A stretch of DNA of 64,000 bases from Ignavibacteriota bacterium. GTDB taxonomy: Bacteria > Bacteroidota > Ignavibacteria > Kapaibacteriales > UBA2268. The stretch spans positions 13,693 through 77,692 of the forward strand of contig JAGQWJ010000005.1 of assembly GCA_020437395.1 (NCBI GenBank). The letters run 5' to 3'. The position numbers were made by a program, and so were the translations under genes. Positions 2,965 through 63,154 of this stretch are shown here, in pieces. Each line of letters opens with the position of its first letter. Within the stretch, counting starts at the first letter, position 1. The notes beneath the pieces were generated by a model. It did no database searches. It saw nothing but the letters and a program-made list of their open reading frames with translations, and was not told where the DNA came from.

Positions 2965-3365
2965 AGCTTGAATCCCATTTTTACTTCTGTACCATTACTT
3001 GTACTATCTATTTCCATCTCGTCTGTCAACTTTCTAATAAGAAAAACACCTCTACCAGATTGTTTTAATAAATTCTCAGGCAAAGTCGGATCAGGGATAT
3101 TAGATTCAACAAACCCAACTCCTTCATCTTTGACATAAATTATAAAATATTGTGTATTTTTTTCTAGAGTAATTATTACTTTCTTTTCTGGATTTTTTTT
3201 ATTTCCATGGTAAATTGCATTATTAACTGCTTCTGTAAAAGCTATTAGGATATTCATAAAGCTGTTATCTAACTCAATTAGATACTCTGTACGAAAATCG
3301 TTCAAAAATTCCTCTGCTTTTAGAAGAGTATTGTTATCTGTATCTATTATTATTTCTTTTCTCAT
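2961..3365 (-). CDS. RsbW/SpoIIAB-like GHKL ATPase (anti-sigma-factor-type serine kinase fold)
   Basis: 134 aa. N-box EAVNNAIYHG, G1 box KDEGVGF, G2 box SGRGVFLIRKL. ATGA overlaps on both sides indicate translational coupling. Confidence 0.8.
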   Translation of the reverse strand: MRKEIIIDTDNNTLLKAEEFLNDFRTEYLIELDNSFMNILIAFTEAVNNAIYHGNKKNPEKKVIITLEKNTQYFIIYVKDEGVGFVESNIPDPTLPENLLKQSGRGVFLIRKLTDEMEIDSTSNGTEVKMGFKL

Positions 3366-5239
3366 AGTTTTATATTTGTTGACAAATAAAAATTTACCAA
3401 CTCATTTTTCCTATCAATATTAATTGATTGAAATTCATACCAGAAATCAAATTTTATAGTATTCATCGAATCGTATGTATATTCAAAAATCAATTCGGGA
3501 GCTATAGATTCGAAGTCGTTTAAAATAACATTATTTTGTGAAATAAACTCACTAATTCTTATATCTTTACGCTTAAAGTACCTAACTCCTGCCCCAAAAA
3601 TATAATTTTCCTCTCTTTTTATTATCAATCCTTTTAAAAACATTTCAAAATTTGATCTTTGAGGTTGCTCGGAAAATTCGTCCCAATATAATATTCCCCT
3701 TTCTGAATACCTTAATTCATCTTTTGTTTCAAAATATAAATTCTTATTTAGTCTTATTTGAAGTGAGTCAAGATAAGAAACTTCACGAAAACTAAAGCTA
3801 TTAATACCTGTAATTACATTTTCAAAATCGTATGTTGTATAGTTTGCATTTATACCAAAAATTGGCTTGTAATATAGTTCATCTGACATAAGTAAAATAG
3901 TTGGAGCAAGTTTTATTAATCTATTCCAATTATTAGAAGAACTCCTTTGTGATTTTAAGTAAACATAATGAAAAAATCTGAATTCATTCCTAATACCAAT
4001 TGAGAGTATTCTAGACACTCTCCTCAAATATTCGATATCACCAGCAAAAGATAATTCATCTCTATCATCATTATTCTTGTCTGAAGGAGTATCAAATCTC
4101 AATATTCTGTAATCTGTACCTATACTCAATGAATCGTACCATGAAAGCTTAATGTAACTATTGAATTTGAGATTTAAATATGTTTCTATTCTGTCTTGTC
4201 TGTTCTGATCCGATTTATAAAGTTCAAATTGATTAGAAGGTAAGTCTAGTATATTTATGGCTGAATAGTCTTCGTCTGTCCTGTTGTAATTAATAAATGA
4301 GTATAAAGAAAAATCAGTTATCTTATAATTCATAGAATTTGAAATATCAAAGTTATAAAGATTAACTTCTCGCTTAAAATTTGATTCATTTATTGAGAGA
4401 AAGTTGGATAAATAATGGTTTGAAATTAGTTCATTATTAAAAGCTAATGAAGTAACATTCGTAATATTCTTTAATAATTGGAAATTAAAATTTGTTCTGA
4501 GTTGAATTTTGTCAGATTTTCTACTTCTAATTGGTATATCGCTTATTCCTGGATTAATCTCAGGATTATCTCTATTTCTATTCAAATAACCTATATCAAA
4601 TGAAATTGAACTTGTTTCATCGAAGGATTTAATGGAACTGAAACTTATATTAATATCTTGATTTTTTCTTCCATCTTCTAAATTAACTATATCTGCAAAA
4701 CCCTGACTGTAAATAAATATGTCTTCAAAATCTAGTTTATTAATTGAATAATTTCCATAGTAATAGTTCCCAATATTTTCTAATCCCACAGTTGTATTTC
4801 TTTCTTTACCGTAACCAGCTTCAAAGTATGAATCACTAAAAAAATGATATTTTACTCCTAGTAGAAAATTCAATCTTTCTAATTTATTCTGACCAAAATT
4901 CAATGTGTTAGATGAGATAAACCAATTGTTCTTATTAAATAAGAATAAATCGTTTGTTACTTCATAGTCATAGTTAACTCGTAGCTTTTGAGTTTCTTGA
5001 AAAGAGCTACTATTTACTAGAGGAGTACCTTGTCCGTTATAACTTTGCAAAACATATATATTTCCAAAATTACCTTTCTTATTGAGGAAAAAATCATTAC
5101 TAAAATTATAAATATTTTGAAATTTATATGATCCTGTTCGTAAATAGCTGCTATCTTGAACAAAGTAAATAGGTTCAAATATTGCCTGTGCATTAGTTGA
5201 GTAAGTGACAATAGCTATGAAAATTAAGATACGAAACAA
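3362..5239 (-). CDS. Secreted outer-membrane beta-barrel-like protein, function unknown
   Basis: 625 aa. N-terminal signal peptide MFRILIFIAIVTYSTNAQA. Aromatic/Asn/Ser-rich alternating pattern typical of OMP strands. Apparent TTG start at 5239, since the nearby ATG at 5246 is out of frame. Confidence 0.6.
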   Translation of the reverse strand: MFRILIFIAIVTYSTNAQAIFEPIYFVQDSSYLRTGSYKFQNIYNFSNDFFLNKKGNFGNIYVLQSYNGQGTPLVNSSSFQETQKLRVNYDYEVTNDLFLFNKNNWFISSNTLNFGQNKLERLNFLLGVKYHFFSDSYFEAGYGKERNTTVGLENIGNYYYGNYSINKLDFEDIFIYSQGFADIVNLEDGRKNQDINISFSSIKSFDETSSISFDIGYLNRNRDNPEINPGISDIPIRSRKSDKIQLRTNFNFQLLKNITNVTSLAFNNELISNHYLSNFLSINESNFKREVNLYNFDISNSMNYKITDFSLYSFINYNRTDEDYSAINILDLPSNQFELYKSDQNRQDRIETYLNLKFNSYIKLSWYDSLSIGTDYRILRFDTPSDKNNDDRDELSFAGDIEYLRRVSRILSIGIRNEFRFFHYVYLKSQRSSSNNWNRLIKLAPTILLMSDELYYKPIFGINANYTTYDFENVITGINSFSFREVSYLDSLQIRLNKNLYFETKDELRYSERGILYWDEFSEQPQRSNFEMFLKGLIIKREENYIFGAGVRYFKRKDIRISEFISQNNVILNDFESIAPELIFEYTYDSMNTIKFDFWYEFQSINIDRKNELVNFYLSTNIKL

Positions 5240-55412: not shown

Positions 55413-57554
55413 ATGAATAAAGAACAACTCACCAATCAGTTATTATTAGTATTATCGGAAGCTCTAAAACCTTTGAATATCAATCAACTACTTAGAGAAC
55501 TTGATTCAAATACTAATCAGATTGAAGCTTCAGTTGTTGAGGAAGTTTTGATTGATTTGATTGATAATAAATTAGTTAGCAAAAACAAAAAAAGTAAATA
55601 TAGTTTAATTGATAATTCAACTGATGTCTACGAAGGATATTATAATTACAAAAGAGGTCATTCTGTAGTTGTAGTTATAGATTCAGAAAACAGTATTTTT
55701 TATGTTAAAAATGAGCATAGTTATACTGCTCTAGATGGTGATAAAGTATTGGTCAAATTGCTTGATATAAAGAAAGGTAAGAATTACGGTGTAGTAGTTG
55801 ATATAGTAGAAAGAAAGAATAATGAGATAGAAGGAACAGTAGAATTTAGTGGTGGTGAGTACTATCTAAAAACAAATCCTGATAAGTATAGATACGATTT
55901 TTTAATAGAATGGCATGATGATTTAGGTTTGTTGGAAGGTAAGAAAGCTAAAGGAGTCTTAACAAATTGGAGTAATCCGAAAAAGCCACCAAAAGTAAAG
56001 GTAAAAGTAGTGAACGAAAATATAGAAGATTTAAGGTCGGCTTTCGATAGAATAGTAGATGAATATGAACTAAATGAAGTATTTCCTGATAAAGTTCAAA
56101 AAGAAGCTAACAAGATAAAAGACCCGAGTGAAACTAAAATTAGCAAGGGACGAAAAGATATAAGAGATAAATTTATCATCACAGTTGATCCAGCAGATGC
56201 TAAGGATTTTGATGATGCAATCTCTTTAGAATATGATGAGAATAATAATATAGTTCTAGGAGTGCACATAGCAGACGTAAGCTTTTATGTTCCTGAGAAC
56301 TCAGAGATAGACATTGAAGCACGAGAAAGGGGTAATAGTACATATCTAGTTGATAGAGTTGTGCCTATGCTACCAGAGGTGCTATCGAACGATATATGCT
56401 CACTCAAGCCGAACATAGATAGAAATGCTTTTTCAGTCTTTATGACATTGGATAGTAATTATGAATTAATTCACTATGAATTACATGAGACTCTTATCAA
56501 TAGTAAAAAAAGATATAGCTATGAAGAAGCTCTAGACACAATAAATGGTGGCAAGGACGAAAATTCGGAGCTAATGCAAACATTAGCTGAAATTTCTCAA
56601 AAGTTAAGGCATAAGAGATTTGAAAATGGTGGAATTAATTTCTCTAGTTCAGAGTTACGTTTTGAGCTAAATGAAGATAGAATACCAATAAAAAGTAATA
56701 TAAAGAATGCAACGAAATCTACTCAAATGATAGAAGAGTACATGCTTTTAGCGAATCGTTCTGTTACATTATTTGTAAAAGAGTTAAGTAAAAAAGCTGG
56801 TAATAAGGAAACTCTTCCTTTTATATATAGAATTCACGAAGATCCTGACAGAGCTATTGTTAATGAAGCATTTCAGTTTATCGGTCATTTGACAGGAAAT
56901 AAATTCAAGAAAGTTAGTGAAGTTAGAGCTAAAGATATTAATAATATTTTAAACCGATTTGAAGATAGTACTTATTCACCAGTAATTAACCAAGTTTTAA
57001 TTCGTTCAATGGCTAAGGCAATTTATTCACAAAAAAATTATGGACATTTCGGACTTGGGTTTGAAGATTATACCCACTTTACATCTCCTATCAGAAGATA
57101 TGCCGATTTAGTAGTGCATAGACTCCTCAAAGAATACATGAAGTCAAAAGGCAAAGTATCTAAGTCCAGAATTGATTATTTGAAACCATTTACAAAATCA
57201 GTTTCTGACCATATTTCTCAAACTGAACGTAAGTCGATGGAAGCAGAAAGAGCTAGCAATAAATTAGCTTCTGCTGTGATGGTTAGAAATAAAATCGGCA
57301 ACGAATACAATGGTACTGTGACTGGTGTTATTAATTTCGGATTATTTCTTATATTAGACGAGTTAAATGTGGAAGGTTTACTACATGTTAAAGATCTGAA
57401 TAATGATTATTACCGTTTTGACGAGAAGAATCTGAAATTTGTTGGTAAGAGGACAAAAACCGAATTTACTATTGGAACCAGACTTAGAGTTAAAATAGCA
57501 AAAATTAATATTGGTAAATCGCAAATAGATTTTGAATTTATTGAGAAGTTATAA
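55413..57554 (+). CDS. rnr: Ribonuclease R
   Basis: Cold-shock-like N-terminal domains. RNB catalytic blocks ITVDPADAKDFDDAIS, HIADVS, RGNSTYL and HFGLGFEDYTHFTSPIRRYADL. C-terminal S1 domain. Confidence 0.92.
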   Translation: MNKEQLTNQLLLVLSEALKPLNINQLLRELDSNTNQIEASVVEEVLIDLIDNKLVSKNKKSKYSLIDNSTDVYEGYYNYKRGHSVVVVIDSENSIFYVKNEHSYTALDGDKVLVKLLDIKKGKNYGVVVDIVERKNNEIEGTVEFSGGEYYLKTNPDKYRYDFLIEWHDDLGLLEGKKAKGVLTNWSNPKKPPKVKVKVVNENIEDLRSAFDRIVDEYELNEVFPDKVQKEANKIKDPSETKISKGRKDIRDKFIITVDPADAKDFDDAISLEYDENNNIVLGVHIADVSFYVPENSEIDIEARERGNSTYLVDRVVPMLPEVLSNDICSLKPNIDRNAFSVFMTLDSNYELIHYELHETLINSKKRYSYEEALDTINGGKDENSELMQTLAEISQKLRHKRFENGGINFSSSELRFELNEDRIPIKSNIKNATKSTQMIEEYMLLANRSVTLFVKELSKKAGNKETLPFIYRIHEDPDRAIVNEAFQFIGHLTGNKFKKVSEVRAKDINNILNRFEDSTYSPVINQVLIRSMAKAIYSQKNYGHFGLGFEDYTHFTSPIRRYADLVVHRLLKEYMKSKGKVSKSRIDYLKPFTKSVSDHISQTERKSMEAERASNKLASAVMVRNKIGNEYNGTVTGVINFGLFLILDELNVEGLLHVKDLNNDYYRFDEKNLKFVGKRTKTEFTIGTRLRVKIAKINIGKSQIDFEFIEKL

Positions 57555-58153: not shown

Positions 58154-59500
58154 ATGCTTGCCATTTTGAACATATTATATCTCCTACTCCCTATCAGCCA
58201 AACTGGTAGTGAAGCAGGAGTTAATATAATAGCTGGGCCAAACCTCGAATATACGAAACTACAATCTGTCGATAGTCAAACCTATTTTTATGGTGAAGAA
58301 GAATTCCAAACGGGGTTTCACTATGGCTTGGGTGGATACTATAATTACTACTTCGATAGGGATTACTACTTAGGTTTAAAGGCATCATATATACATTTAA
58401 ATACTACTTTTAGAGAATATGAACCAGAAGTAATTAATATAGATGGTCAAGCTGTTGATGGAGAATTCGAACATTATTTTGATTACAATATAGAGACAAT
58501 CTATTTGACTATAGGGGGTGGTTACAGACTAAGCCAGAGATTTGCTGTTGAAGTTGGAATTCTCTATACCTCCCCTGTCTCAGATTATCAAATACACAGC
58601 AAAGAGACGATAGTAAAGCCTGTAGATGCTGGTGTTTTCAAAGAGGAAGGAACAAGAATTAGAAATGAGCAACGGTTTTCAATCCCTTCTAGTAGTTCTA
58701 AATTTGGTGCTTCGCTTGGATTGAATGGCTTATTTCCAATGAACAAAAGCGAGACTATTTTCCTAAAGCCGTCATTATCATATAGCTATATATTCTCCGA
58801 AAACTTAGACAATCTAACTAGCTGGAGGACTGATTTTGTTGACTTATCTATAGGTGTTAGTTTCATTCTAGGAGAAAATGAGATCTTCGGAGAAAAAAAC
58901 AAAGTTATAGAACCAGAGTTTACAATTGCTTTATTTGAGTTAAATGGAACAGTGGAGCGTTCATTGAGGAAAATTCAAATGAGTTATGCTGAAGCTAAGG
59001 ATTTAACAACTTCAAAAATCAATAAAATCGTTTTAAAACCTAGACGATCACTTATTACTTACGTAGGAATTAAAAATAAGTTTGACAGAACAGTTAGTAT
59101 TCGTGTACTAGCGAACGAAAAACAAGTCTATAAAATAGAGAGTTTAGAAGAATCTAATCGATTAGAAATTGATATAGATAACCTTATCAAAAGTATTGAT
59201 GCGAAAGAGTTGAATTTTATAGTTGTATCTGAAGATGGGTTCGATAAAAAGGTAGAATTAACTGTTGATTTCAATAAATCAGGAGAACTTAATTACTTAC
59301 TAACTGATAACTCTGAAGAAATATTAGAATATCTAAATGATAATCCATCGAAGAAATACGAACTATACACAGAAGACAAATCAATCTACAAATCACTTTC
59401 AGAATCTTCTGCTTCTAATATAACAATTCTCCCCAAAGGGAACTTTACTTATCACTTCGAAGAGCTAGAAAAGATAAAATATTTACTCTTAGTTGAGTGA
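58154..59500 (+). CDS. Hypothetical exported protein: N-terminal OMP-like beta-barrel region plus a C-terminal domain of unknown function
   Basis: Weak signal peptide. Tyr/Gly-rich alternating strands (GFHYGLGGYYNYYF, IGGGYRL, LSIGVSF). No recognisable catalytic motif. Confidence 0.5.
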   Translation: MLAILNILYLLLPISQTGSEAGVNIIAGPNLEYTKLQSVDSQTYFYGEEEFQTGFHYGLGGYYNYYFDRDYYLGLKASYIHLNTTFREYEPEVINIDGQAVDGEFEHYFDYNIETIYLTIGGGYRLSQRFAVEVGILYTSPVSDYQIHSKETIVKPVDAGVFKEEGTRIRNEQRFSIPSSSSKFGASLGLNGLFPMNKSETIFLKPSLSYSYIFSENLDNLTSWRTDFVDLSIGVSFILGENEIFGEKNKVIEPEFTIALFELNGTVERSLRKIQMSYAEAKDLTTSKINKIVLKPRRSLITYVGIKNKFDRTVSIRVLANEKQVYKIESLEESNRLEIDIDNLIKSIDAKELNFIVVSEDGFDKKVELTVDFNKSGELNYLLTDNSEEILEYLNDNPSKKYELYTEDKSIYKSLSESSASNITILPKGNFTYHFEELEKIKYLLLVE

Positions 59501-59631
59501 GGTATTAAGTTACGAGCATACTTCCACAAAAGAAAAAAATAAAAATAATATTTTGATATATATAATATATTTAGTAATGTGTATTCAGAATTAATACAAT
59601 TTTATATTATTCAATAATCAAAAGGTGTGAC

Positions 59632-60903
59632 ATGTGCAAATATAAATCAATAATTTTCGGGGGGGGGTATAACCCTCGTGTTTTTCGTGCTATTTAGCAT
59701 GCAATCCTTTTCACAAGGAAATAATACATACCCTTTAAAGGGGAATACAGGACTTGGAACTCAAACAATATTAGCCCCACAAAAGCCATTGCATTTATTA
59801 GGTTCATATTCGCCTAATCCAATTGCAGAACCTTTTATTAGGTTTAGTTGGAAAGATGCGGAGACACCTGAAAACTACGTATCTCACATAGGTGTATTTA
59901 CACCAAGAAGTGGTATCCCTTCTTATACTATGTTACCACCAACTTATGCTAATACTGGAGATTATATAATTCAAGCAAGTCAATCAAGTGAAGATTTAAT
60001 ACTAACGACAAGGAATTATCTTGGTAGCATAAGGCTGGCAACTACACCTGCAAATGGGGACCAGATATGCAAAGGTTTGTATTGAAACCCAACGGAAGAG
60101 TAGGATTAAGTACTAATAATCCTAAGGGATTGTTGGTTTTGAATTTTGGCAAATTTGGTGTAGGGTCAGAAGAGATTCTGTTTCCTAGAATAGTATTTAA
60201 TACTTATCAAGGAATTTCTGGTAATAAACACAATAACTCACCTTCAATTTGGTTTTTCAAAGGTACAGGTGGTGGCCCAGGGACGGGTTTGTGTTCATCA
60301 GATCCAAACAAATATCCAGTTTATCCTTGGCAAATTGAATTACAAAGTATAAATGTAGATGATGAATGGTCAACGCTTGGTGCTTTAAATTTCAGAACAG
60401 TTGAAGATAAATATTGCGTTAGTGAGACTTCAGAATTAGACCCTAATGACCTTATAACTAAGTTTTCATTTTTGAGAAGTGGTAAACTTGGAATTAATCA
60501 TGATCTACCAAAAGTTGAATTGCATGTGTTAGGTCAAGCAAGTATAAACAATCCCCTAACAAATAAAACAATTACAGGAACACATTCTGATTATAGGTTA
60601 GCAGTAGAAGGTAAATTAGTTGCTAAAGAAATTATAGTAACAATTGATAACTGGAACACTTGGCCAGATTATGTATTCAAGCCAAACTATAATCTAATGT
60701 CTTTATTGGATTTAGAAAAAAGTATAAATCAAAATGGACATTTACCCGGAATACCTAGTGCAGAAGATGTTAGGGACAACGGAATTAATATAAGCGAAGT
60801 GCAGGCAAAACTCTTAGAGAAAATAGAAGAGCTAACTTTATACATGATAGAAATGAAAAAAGAAAATGAATTGCTAAAACAAGAAATAAACAAACTGAAA
60901 TAG
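59632..60903 (+). pseudogene. Surface fibre-like protein gene interrupted twice by frame changes (at the G9 tract and near a G4 run). It belongs to the Bacteroidota-type family with a conserved C-terminal W-PDYVF...HLPGIPSAE module and a leucine-zipper-like tail
   Basis: Three collinear pieces: ATG 59632 (frame 1, 21 codons), ORF 59678-60085 (frame 2) and ORF 60067-60903 (frame 1). GN.GLGT and NGRVGLST repeats. The C-terminal WPDYVFKPNYNLMSLLDLEKSINQNGHLPGIPSAEDV...LLEKIEELTLYMIE block is one I recall as recurrent in Bacteroidota tail-fibre-like proteins (not verified by search). Confidence 0.6.
59659..59667 (+). repeat. Homopolymeric G9 tract
   Basis: Counted directly: 59659-59667 are all G, anchored on the GTG at 59678 that matches the ORF track. 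Confidence 0.9.
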
Positions 60904-60906
60904 GTG

Positions 60907-61377
60907 ATGAAAATGAGAAATATAATAATTTTAGTAATAACAGCTACATTCATCATTGCTTGTAAAGATGAAGGAGCGTCTGGACTACAAAGTGTAGAGT
61001 CGATTTTGTCAGTAAGTCAAGTCAAAACAATAGGTGAATGTGATGATTCAAGTTATTGTAAATTTGAATTTAAAATAGAAAAGGATTCAATTTATACTAA
61101 AAAAAGTACTTTATTAGAAAACATTGAATTACCAAATATAATAAATTCTTATTTTAATAAAGATATTAAAATTGACTCGTTAACAAATCTCATTAATTTC
61201 GATAACATTGATAATGAACATTATAACTCAGATTGTAACTCAATTGACGGTGGATGTTATGAATTATTCATAATAACAAATTATAGAGAAATATATGTAA
61301 AATATGGTCAACTTCCTGAAGAATTTATAGACTTAGACGATTTTTTAAGAAAAAAAAGGTTGAGTTATGAGTTTTAA
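60907..61377 (+). CDS. Small lipoprotein of unknown function with six Cys in the mature part
   Basis: Lipobox TFIIAC after MKMRNIIILVITA. Begins 4 nt after the fibre-like gene stop and overlaps the metalloprotease start by 11 nt. Confidence 0.55.
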   Translation: MKMRNIIILVITATFIIACKDEGASGLQSVESILSVSQVKTIGECDDSSYCKFEFKIEKDSIYTKKSTLLENIELPNIINSYFNKDIKIDSLTNLINFDNIDNEHYNSDCNSIDGGCYELFIITNYREIYVKYGQLPEEFIDLDDFLRKKRLSYEF

Positions 61378-63154
61378 TAAAATCAAATGGGTTGTATTTT
61401 TTTATATGTTTTTAGTTATGGTAAATACTTTACATTCTAAAGAAAAAATACTTTTTCATAAGTCTTCAATTTCAGAATTATCAAATTTAAAAAAAGAATT
61501 CATAGAATCAACTCAAAAGATGAAGCATATTGAAGAATCAAGAATTGTTGGGATAAATGAAATTGATTTCAATGAAGAATATAAAATTGAATTAAATGAT
61601 TCAGTTTTAACAACTGGATATTTTGAACAAAAGGGGAGTTTTGTAAAATTCAAAACGAGTAAAATTGTAGATTATGGAACTTTTATTTACAAAAACAACA
61701 CTTTGAGAGGGCATTTCAAGATTAACAATAAATTATTTGAGTTAAAACCTATTGAAAAAAAGTTGCATATCTTGATTACAATTGACAAATCTGAAATTAA
61801 AGAAGAAGATTGTTCATTAAATTCCTTAGAAACAATTGAAAGTTCTGAAAATAAAGAAACAAGTTATAATAAATTTCTTTCAACTAAAATAGAATGTAGT
61901 ACTAATATTTTAGTTGCATATACACCAGAAGCTTATAATGTAAGAGGGGGCATATCTGATATTAACGATGACATACAGCTTGCCGTACAATTAACGAATG
62001 AATCTTATGAAAATAGTCAAATAAATCAGAAAGTAAATATAGTTAGGACTATTTTAACTAATTATTCTGAATCTCTAACTGATCAATATGCTTATTTGAA
62101 ATATCACGGAAATGTTTTGATTCCTACAGATTTAATAAGACTACAAAATAAAACAGACGGATATATGGATGAGTTACATAATCTAAGAGATATGTACTCA
62201 GCAGATTTTGTTGTTCTAATTGTTGGTAATTCCGGTTTTGGCGGCGTAGCTAGAGTTATTAATGCAGAAATTGAAGAGGAAGCCTTTTGCGCAATTGAAG
62301 CGACTGGAACATTTTTAACATCGAATTATACATTTGCACATGAATTAGGTCATTTGATGGGGGCAAGACATGACTATGGTGCAGGTGGTGCGAACACTTA
62401 TTATAATATTCCTTTTGCATATGGACACGGATACTGTTATTCTTCTGGAAGTGGAAGCTGGAGAACGATAATGTCATATAATAGCTGTGGAGCTGATAGA
62501 ATTAATTATTGGTCAAATCCTAATGTTACTTATGGTGGTGTAGTTATGGGTACAACCAATAGAGAGGATAATGCACATGTATTAAACGAAACAGAAATTG
62601 ATATAAAGGACATTTTAGTTACTCCAACTAATTATTATATGACAGATGATGATATTGTAGATGAATATGATATTGCAGATTTAGTTGCTTTTGAATTGTT
62701 GGATGTTGAATCCGAATATATTAATGAACCAAATTCGGAAGTAACATTTAGAGCAGGGAATGAAATTAGAATTGGAACAGGTTTCCATTCAAAATCTGGA
62801 TCAGAGTTTCATGCTTTCATTGATAATGTTGATTGCAGTCCCTCTTCTAAACGCATAAATGAAACGCAGGAATTTGACTCACCAAATATTGGAAATACTG
62901 TACTTTCTATCTCCCCAAACCCTGTAACAAGTATTTCGGATATAGTGCTGACAGTCGGAACATCTGATAATGTGTCGTTGATACTTTATGATAATCTGGG
63001 TAATAAACGTTTGTCATATTTAGAAGATGTATCGTTGAAATCAGGTACTTACAATTATACTTTAGACGGCAATGAGTTGAATTCGGGTATGTTTGTTCTT
63101 ATCCTAAAAATTGATGGTAGGATAATAACAGAAAAGATTATCAATTTGAAGTAG
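61367..63154 (+). CDS. Secreted reprolysin-like (metzincin, M12B-type) zinc metalloprotease with a T9SS C-terminal sorting domain
   Basis: Signal peptide. Zinc site HELGHLMGARHD (HExxHxxGxxHD). Candidate Met-turn in RTIMSY. The C-terminal roughly 80 aa (ISPNPVTS...LILYDNLGNK...GMFVLILKIDGRIITEKIINLK) matches the Por/T9SS CTD pattern. Confidence 0.85.
   Translation: MSFNKIKWVVFFYMFLVMVNTLHSKEKILFHKSSISELSNLKKEFIESTQKMKHIEESRIVGINEIDFNEEYKIELNDSVLTTGYFEQKGSFVKFKTSKIVDYGTFIYKNNTLRGHFKINNKLFELKPIEKKLHILITIDKSEIKEEDCSLNSLETIESSENKETSYNKFLSTKIECSTNILVAYTPEAYNVRGGISDINDDIQLAVQLTNESYENSQINQKVNIVRTILTNYSESLTDQYAYLKYHGNVLIPTDLIRLQNKTDGYMDELHNLRDMYSADFVVLIVGNSGFGGVARVINAEIEEEAFCAIEATGTFLTSNYTFAHELGHLMGARHDYGAGGANTYYNIPFAYGHGYCYSSGSGSWRTIMSYNSCGADRINYWSNPNVTYGGVVMGTTNREDNAHVLNETEIDIKDILVTPTNYYMTDDDIVDEYDIADLVAFELLDVESEYINEPNSEVTFRAGNEIRIGTGFHSKSGSEFHAFIDNVDCSPSSKRINETQEFDSPNIGNTVLSISPNPVTSISDIVLTVGTSDNVSLILYDNLGNKRLSYLEDVSLKSGTYNYTLDGNELNSGMFVLILKIDGRIITEKIINLK

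Follow-up and report, generated by a model that had tools for sequence, protein, structure and literature searches.

This study concerns a run of nine guanines near the 5' end of a fibre-like gene, a probable slipped-strand phase-variation tract, in a 64,000-nucleotide stretch of DNA from an Ignavibacteriota bacterium (GenBank assembly GCA_020437395.1, contig JAGQWJ010000005.1; hereafter the window). All window features described below lie on the forward strand. The nine G's occupy positions 59659-59667 and are preceded by an ATG at 59632-59634, with AAAAGGTGTGAC immediately 5' of it and a Shine-Dalgarno-like AGGTG (59623-59627) 4 nucleotides (nt) before it. At this length (G9) the ATG opens a leader of 21 codons, MCKYKSIIFGGGYNPRVFRAI, which comes to a dead end at the TAG at 59695-59697 (59632-59697 as a whole), just as the initial annotation had read it. 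We call this state OFF, and ON the state in which the ATG is in frame with the mature protein. Downstream of the tract there is an open reading frame (ORF) at 59678-60085, encoding 135 amino acids (aa) from a GTG or 128 aa from the ATG at 59699, and a second ORF of 278 aa at 60067-60903 that overlaps the first in a different frame.

When the length of the tract is changed in silico, the ATG at 59632 reads MCKYKSIIFGGGITLVFFVLFSMQSFSQG... at G8 and continues into the frame of the 59678 ORF; G11 is in frame as well, and G10 is a dead frame. The proposal that one G fewer or two more would join the ATG to this ORF is thus borne out by translation, and the fusion product is MCKYKSIIFGGG(G)ITLVFFVLFSMQSFSQG.... 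On translation, then, the tract sets whether the conserved ATG is predicted to be in frame with the mature protein. In the in-frame versions it provides glycine codons 10-12, placed between the n-region and the h-region of a putative Sec signal peptide, the remaining codons of which (59668-59713) read ITLVFFVLFSMQSFS in the frame of the 59678 ORF, with predicted cleavage before QG. The parts of the signal peptide in the G8 translation, assigned by eye, are M-C-K-Y-K, ITLVFFVLF and an S-F-S that precedes QG and offers small residues at -3 and -1. A matching signal-peptide leader is found in two in-frame relatives, P0143 (contig L017) and P0007 (contig L215), both of which start at the ATG equivalent to 59632, and an AGGTG or AGGGTG followed by an ATG 4-5 nt on recurs in every allele that was aligned.

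The tract is the sole run of more than five G or C residues in the window, the G+C content of which is about 30%, and the expected number of runs of at least nine is only ~0.003 (independent bases) to ~0.004 (first-order Markov model). Moreover, GGG is a rare glycine codon, used in 89 of 911 cases (9.8%) across the long ORFs of the window, where none of the six other Gly-Gly-Gly tripeptides is encoded as GGG-GGG-GGG. We conclude that the run is not due to chance. Tracts of about 7-8 or more G or C residues that are over-represented relative to base composition are regarded as hypermutable, and the G9 tract is of this kind. The last G's of the tract also take part in a small terminator-like hairpin (59663-59687), in which they can pair with the conserved CCCTC (GGGGGT-ATA-ACCCTC) ahead of the T-rich GTGTTTTTCG. 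The hairpin is kept in close alleles, and it may simply mirror the codons of the hydrophobic core.

The 59678 ORF was initially taken to be the long gene itself, but it turned out to be only the N-terminal part of a split gene of about 423 aa. It is cut short by a 1-nt deletion at 60056-60059, where the window reads AAT GGG GAC CAG as opposed to AAT GGN GGN CCN GAT (N-G-G-P-D) in intact alleles; the window DNA at this site is AATGGGGACCAGAT, and intact alleles have one nt more. Five homologues (P0001, P0002, P0003, P0142 and P0143) are continuous across the junction (...TTPANGGPDMQRFVLKPNG...), therefore the two window ORFs represent one gene, the C-terminal fragment of which carries a beta-helix fibre motif along with a C-terminal domain that is conserved and has a coiled coil. 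In metagenome-assembled genomes (MAGs) at NCBI, labelled 'Candidatus Kapaibacterium sp.' or Ignavibacteriota, the gene is annotated as separate hypothetical proteins of 128 and 278 aa. The deletion lies about 390 nt downstream of the tract, so that at G8 or G11 the window allele would give only a truncated product of 150 or 151 aa; because of this second frameshift, no tract length restores the full 423-aa protein here. We also considered whether a gain of one G could compensate for the deletion, as the ATG at 59632 and the second ORF share a frame, and rejected this, for many stop codons lie between them in that frame. One contig of the window's clone (L007, a 1.48-Mb contig of GCA_041391585.1) has an extra 1-nt deletion and an extra 1-nt insertion at about 4046-4130 (window 60744-60826) that shorten its C-terminal ORF to 241 aa. 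These are missing from the other contigs of the clone, and they could reflect either further decay or an assembly error.

A G tract is retained at this position in twelve further distinct alleles, which belong to the gene and its close relatives. In the related contigs an AGGTG is followed 4-5 nt on by the ATG, about 9-10 codons, the G tract and then (N)TATAACCCTCGT..., which encodes the hydrophobic core. The locus is found downstream of genes for a GGDEF protein, RNase R, riboflavin synthase and a 448-aa protein; other genomes have it upstream of guaA, in rearranged surroundings. Both the length and the resulting frame vary. The tract is G9 and OFF in the window clone and in L006, G11 and OFF in L001, L050 and L058, and G12 and OFF in L216/L217. 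L003/L004, which come from two samples and are both G12, are OFF from the conserved ATG, their sole in-frame start being a GTG overlapping the ribosome-binding site; the gene caller used this GTG, a start we consider unlikely because it overlaps the conserved AGGGTG and all other alleles start at the ATG 4-5 nt later. ON alleles are found in L002 (G10), in L017 (G11, with a leader nearly identical to that of the window) and in two interrupted forms, namely G5-C-G5 in L018-L021 and G5-C-G4, on a window-type leader, in L215. P0143, encoded in L017, matches the predicted G11 ON form of the window almost verbatim (MYKYKSIIFGGGGITLVLFVLFSMQSFSQG). Apart from that of the window, the OFF alleles have no lesion but the tract, and adding or removing 1 or 2 G's brings back an ORF of 425-437 aa. 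The closest pair, L002 and L058, comes from independent samples, and the two contigs are 99.97% identical over 9,681 bp, with 2 single-nucleotide polymorphisms and one indel; this sole indel is the tract itself, G10 (ON) in the one and G11 (OFF) in the other.

There are a few further points of interest in the tracts of these relatives. In the interrupted alleles a single C follows the fifth G (GGGGGCGGGGG and GGGGGCGGGG; L018:6001-6060 and L215:1501-1560), and both alleles are in frame. One has the window-type leader; in the other, both the leader and the N-domain type are different. A tract broken up in this way should hold the ON state more stably. L050 (45-90) and L216 (1439-1485) have a common leader and N-domain. 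The run AAAAAATAA(A)GAG has one A more in one of them than in the other, and the tract is G11 in L050 and G12 in L216; the two changes cancel, leaving both alleles in the same OFF frame. An exact-pattern DNA scan of species-representative genomes with GGGGGGGG N0-2 ATAACCCTCGT gave no match. A looser pattern detected 113 stretches in metagenome contigs, two of which are real homologues (L050 and L058), the remainder being chance matches.

The gene shows clear signs of purifying selection. Among five alleles with the N-domain type of the window, the ratio of nonsynonymous to synonymous substitution rates (dN/dS) is 0.02-0.08 in every pair, at synonymous divergences (dS) of 0.4-3.4. Since this holds even for pairs in which both alleles are OFF, the protein appears to be kept by selection and the OFF states must be transient. 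The same reasoning applies to the repeat: a pure G run would not survive a dS of 0.4-3.4 unless the tract itself were selected. In the relatives, therefore, the tract resides in an otherwise intact gene under selection, which cannot be said of the window copy with its 1-nt deletion.

The situation in the clone of the window is different. Ten further contigs with the exact 128-aa N-terminal ORF were found in NCBI, Logan and ENA, and all ten have G9, which makes 11 out of 11 clone sequences spanning the tract when the window is included. The 1-nt deletion is likewise present in 12 out of 12 clone sequences spanning its site (the window, L005 and L007-L016). Two of the contigs, L005 and L013, carry MEGAHIT-style k141 names, and the others include Logan contigs and an NCBI MAG. 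As both lesions recur across contigs, they are real and not the errors of one assembly. The length heterogeneity that the initial annotation had anticipated was not seen here; at the level of consensus sequences the clone is uniformly G9, an outcome that the annotation itself had named as a refutation. There are 0 differences between the clone contigs and the window over 58900-60660, and in so young a clone uniformity is hardly informative on long-term stability. No exact match to the in-frame versions of the window allele (G5, G8 and G11) was found among ~15 billion proteins. L007 and L008 show about 3% divergence, located mainly in a patch at 56900-57500 in the 3' part of the RNase R gene (~80-100 substitutions in ~600 bp), which is suggestive of a recombined patch within a background that is clonal elsewhere.

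Neither the whole protein nor the conserved 110 aa at its C-terminus could be assigned to a usable family in Pfam, NCBIfam or PHROGs. The best clue comes from the family profile (alignment A1), positions 127-187 of which match Bd2133 of Bdellovibrio (PDB 8OND, E = 3.2e-8) and 8OML (E = 1.8e-5). The matched part is a repeated beta-helix fibre motif, G-x-LRFAT...R-x-VI...G-x-VGIGT..P, and there is also a weak match to a PHROG tail fibre (E = 0.064). An AlphaFold2 monomer model, for which 16 sequences were aligned, was of too low quality to be used in a fold search (mean predicted local distance difference test score, pLDDT, 40.8). The family is also mosaic in structure: its leader, tract and C-terminal domain are combined with either of two N-terminal domain types that are unrelated to each other (GNNTYPL... 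and TPQWIWTPG...). This conserved domain of ~110 aa ends in a coiled coil and is widespread in Bacteroidota. The description of the protein as fibre-like and exported is supported; its exposure at the surface is putative. Directly 3' of the fibre gene (60904-63154) there are two genes with abutting or overlapping starts and stops, both of which may be in an operon with it. The first, an ORF of 157 aa, has an N-terminus like that of a lipoprotein (…TFIIAC), and the second encodes a 595-aa M12B/reprolysin-like metalloprotease with a weak match to a type IX secretion system (T9SS) sorting domain (24 bits, Pfam cut-off 27). The genes between the fibre gene and guaA vary among L001, L002 and L018.

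Repeats of this kind were also looked for in more distant homologues. A scan of species-representative genomes with the family profile detected 80 loci in Bacteroidota and Ignavibacteria, and at 75 of them (in Flavobacterium, Pedobacter, Chitinophaga and others) there is no long G or C run near the 5' end. The idea that 5' repeats are general to the whole C-terminal-domain family was thus ruled out. The five remaining loci are on low-G+C MAG contigs, three of them labelled Ignavibacteria or Chlorobiota. L157 is a short family member with G9 in the signal peptide, OFF but restored to frame at G10. In L202, which is also OFF, a G10 run immediately precedes the predicted cleavage site. L135 has (TC)13 in the signal peptide (2972-2997), OFF but in frame at 12 or 9 units. 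L137 starts with C10 (1-10) inside the N-terminus, and L136 starts inside a G tract (G7, 1-7). The contig ends in L136 and L137 suggest that assemblies may break at the tracts, possibly owing to mixed read lengths. L135 and L202 are labelled Hyphomicrobiales, a label that is doubtful, at least for L202, given a G+C content of 34%. Among the 120 best protein hits, Gly-Gly-Gly near the N-terminus is confined to the close clade, therefore the trait is lineage-specific and not a property of the whole domain family. Two side observations concern individual loci. In the homologue of L135 (P0005, 45% identical) the (TC)13 repeat is translated into Ser-Leu repeats, so that a repeat of another type takes the functional place of the poly-G. 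L202 has an in-frame stop at about 3350 (within the match at 3001-4257) in the conserved '...GQVGI*NNEP...' fibre motif, which makes it a second copy that is both OFF and decayed.

Given these data we consider it likely that the G9 tract is a slipped-strand phase-variation tract of a fibre-like Sec-exported gene in 'Candidatus Kapaibacterium'/Ignavibacteriota, and that the window copy of this gene is decayed and locked OFF. The tract would encode the Gly-Gly-Gly(-Gly) that separates the charged n-region from the hydrophobic core, and one G gained or lost at replication would move the conserved ATG into or out of the frame of the mature protein. By analogy with known poly-G contingency loci, we presume that slipped-strand mispairing during replication causes the length changes and that these are reversible and frequent enough to give mixed ON and OFF populations. 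A slippage switch at the level of the family is well supported by sequence comparison, i.e. by the G9-G12 tracts, the ON and OFF alleles, the L002/L058 pair, the interrupted tracts and purifying selection. For a comparison drawn from metagenomes alone, this case is unusually clean. The switch as it had been proposed for the window thus holds in the relatives, but not for the window copy with its second frameshift. The latter is most likely a recently decayed contingency gene; it may have been caught in the OFF state and then killed by an ordinary 1-nt deletion.

Several points speak against this explanation. First, switching is not visible at the very locus where the tract was found, as the window clone is uniformly G9 and its in-frame forms are missing from the protein collection. 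Secondly, the ratio of OFF to ON is ~10:4 if distinct alleles are counted once and L003/L004 are taken as OFF from the conserved ATG; this is near the two-thirds OFF expected from random length drift, therefore the ratio by itself is no proof of adaptive switching. Thirdly, all tract lengths are assembly consensus values, and single-base homopolymer miscalls are possible in any contig, including L002 and L058. Fourthly, two alleles, those of the window and of L202, have extra lesions as found in decaying genes. Finally, the surface location is deduced indirectly; the protein has neither a lipobox nor a T9SS C-terminal domain, and its structure model is unusable.

The decaying alleles lead to the alternative that fares best, although we still find it unlikely, namely that the gene is an ordinary pseudogene in which the G run is a leftover of Gly-Gly-Gly codons hit by a one-off frameshift, with no switching at all. 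This would account for the two disabling lesions of the window copy, for G9 in all 11 clone sequences, for the stop codon in the OFF allele of L202 and for the annotation of the gene at NCBI as two hypothetical ORFs. What it does not explain is that a pure tract of G9-G12 persists over a dS of 0.4-3.4 in a genome with ~30% G+C, where GGG is a minor glycine codon. The OFF alleles have intact ORFs of 425-437 aa and dN/dS values of 0.02-0.08; a dN/dS near 1 or scattered stops, which would speak for this reading, are not seen in OFF alleles in general. Furthermore, all lengths from 9 to 12 are found, and a near-identical pair of strains differs by an indel only in the tract.

The many OFF alleles under purifying selection could also be explained by leaky expression. 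In this case the control would operate at the RNA level instead of through heritable changes of the DNA: on the G run, RNA polymerase would slip or ribosomes would shift frame, and OFF genotypes would thereby make a steady, small share of in-frame product. Transcriptional slippage is possible at long homopolymers, mostly at A and T runs, and the small hairpin with its T-rich stretch (59663-59687) might be taken as a signal of this sort. We consider this a little less probable even than a plain pseudogene. The length differences are seen directly in the DNA, between alleles and between near-identical strains, and the interrupted in-frame tracts make sense as a stop to slippage of the DNA. The hairpin is not kept in L003, L157 and L202, and no known RNA family was found in Rfam around the tract.

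A working split gene, in which the 278-aa ORF is made alone from its ATG at 60067 and the tract controls a small secreted N-terminal fragment, is rather improbable. It is true that the second ORF starts with an ATG and is intact in most clone contigs, and that the split form occurs widely, 29 blocks of the protein collection containing the exact 128-aa ORF. On the other hand, the product of the second ORF would be without a signal peptide, all intact relatives have one continuous protein across the split point, and in L007 the second ORF is shortened to 241 aa by further indels, as in decay, unless these are assembly errors. The spread of a clone with 0 differences over 58900-60660 reflects recency rather than selection for the split form, and the split is not seen to be conserved across diverged lineages. 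The least credible alternative is that G9 is a homopolymer sequencing or assembly error for a true G8 or G11 with an in-frame 5' end: homopolymers are a classic site of error on long-read and some short-read platforms, and L007 has single-base indels of its own, but the window shares its G9 with ten independent contigs that stem from various samples and assemblers (NCBI, Logan and ENA; L013 with a k141-style name), the 1-nt deletion at 60056-60059 is equally reproducible, and differing alleles have internally consistent lengths, such as G12 in both L003 and L004.

It is instructive to compare the tract with known phase-variable systems. Slipped-strand phase variation is textbook knowledge for host-adapted pathogens; to our knowledge it is rarely documented in uncultured environmental bacteria. 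The similarity to the poly-G/poly-C loci of Campylobacter jejuni, Helicobacter pylori, Neisseria and Bordetella is considerable: the gene encodes an exported or surface protein and has a run of ~8-12 G's in its 5' coding part, changes of one base toggle the frame, ON and OFF alleles coexist among strains, and the tract is far above the expectation from base composition. The differences lie first of all in the host, which here is not a host-adapted pathogen but an uncultured, apparently free-living member of the Kapabacteria/Ignavibacteriota, represented by metagenomes only. In addition, there is just one tract in 64 kb, and the window copy is also broken elsewhere. In the opa genes of Neisseria, a family of about 11 copies encoding beta-barrel adhesins, CTCTT repeats lie within the region coding for the signal peptide. 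As in our case, the repeat is in signal-peptide codons and a change of frame abolishes the whole mature protein, and the (TC)13 layout of L135 is very close to it. The repeat unit is however 1 nt (2 nt in L135) instead of 5 nt, the fibre-like protein is unrelated, and there is apparently one locus per contig.

Bacteroides had been named by the initial annotation as a further precedent, but it is a poor one. The ON/OFF switching of Bacteroides surface structures is achieved mainly by invertible promoters, through site-specific inversion, as opposed to the repeat slippage proposed here. The point in common would be the ON/OFF control of surface components, found with Bacteroides in a related phylum-level group.

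As regards the protein itself, the mosaic adhesive trimer (MAT) fibres of Bdellovibrio bacteriovorus, e.g. Bd2133 (PDB 8OND), are described as trimeric surface fibres with exchangeable binding domains (PMC10769870). The two groups share the beta-helix motif and a mosaic family structure. Nevertheless, only ~55 residues match, and no S74 chaperone domain was found by Pfam and NCBIfam searches. The variable part is N-terminal and the conserved part C-terminal in our family, the reverse of the MAT arrangement, and both trimer formation and surface display are putative here. In the accessible parts of that article, the word 'phase' occurs only in its microscopy and crystallography uses. Our literature searches found no slipped-strand phase variation for Kapabacteria, Ignavibacteria or this gene family, in agreement with the initial annotation. 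The mechanism itself is already known, and it is the lineage and the gene family that are new for it, as far as these searches go.

For the window itself the result is a more modest one, a decayed copy. There is also a practical consequence for annotation, as gene callers truncate or split such genes; the 401-aa and 416-aa calls, for instance, start inside the signal peptide. If the switch at the family level is real, stochastic ON/OFF control of a mosaic surface fibre would be kept in these organisms, which would point to strong fluctuating selection, e.g. by phages, predators or the demands of attachment, and the family would offer a ready test case for studying repeat dynamics in metagenomic reads. 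We further speculate, at roughly even odds, that repeat-driven phase variation of this mosaic fibre family is selected lineage-wide in uncultured free-living Kapabacteria/Ignavibacteria, poly-G, poly-C and (TC)n repeats having been recruited independently to signal-peptide codons. If so, decayed copies like that of the window and interrupted in-frame alleles would be expected by-products, and environmental non-pathogens would use contingency loci on exchangeable surface fibres, plausibly against phages and predators or to vary attachment.

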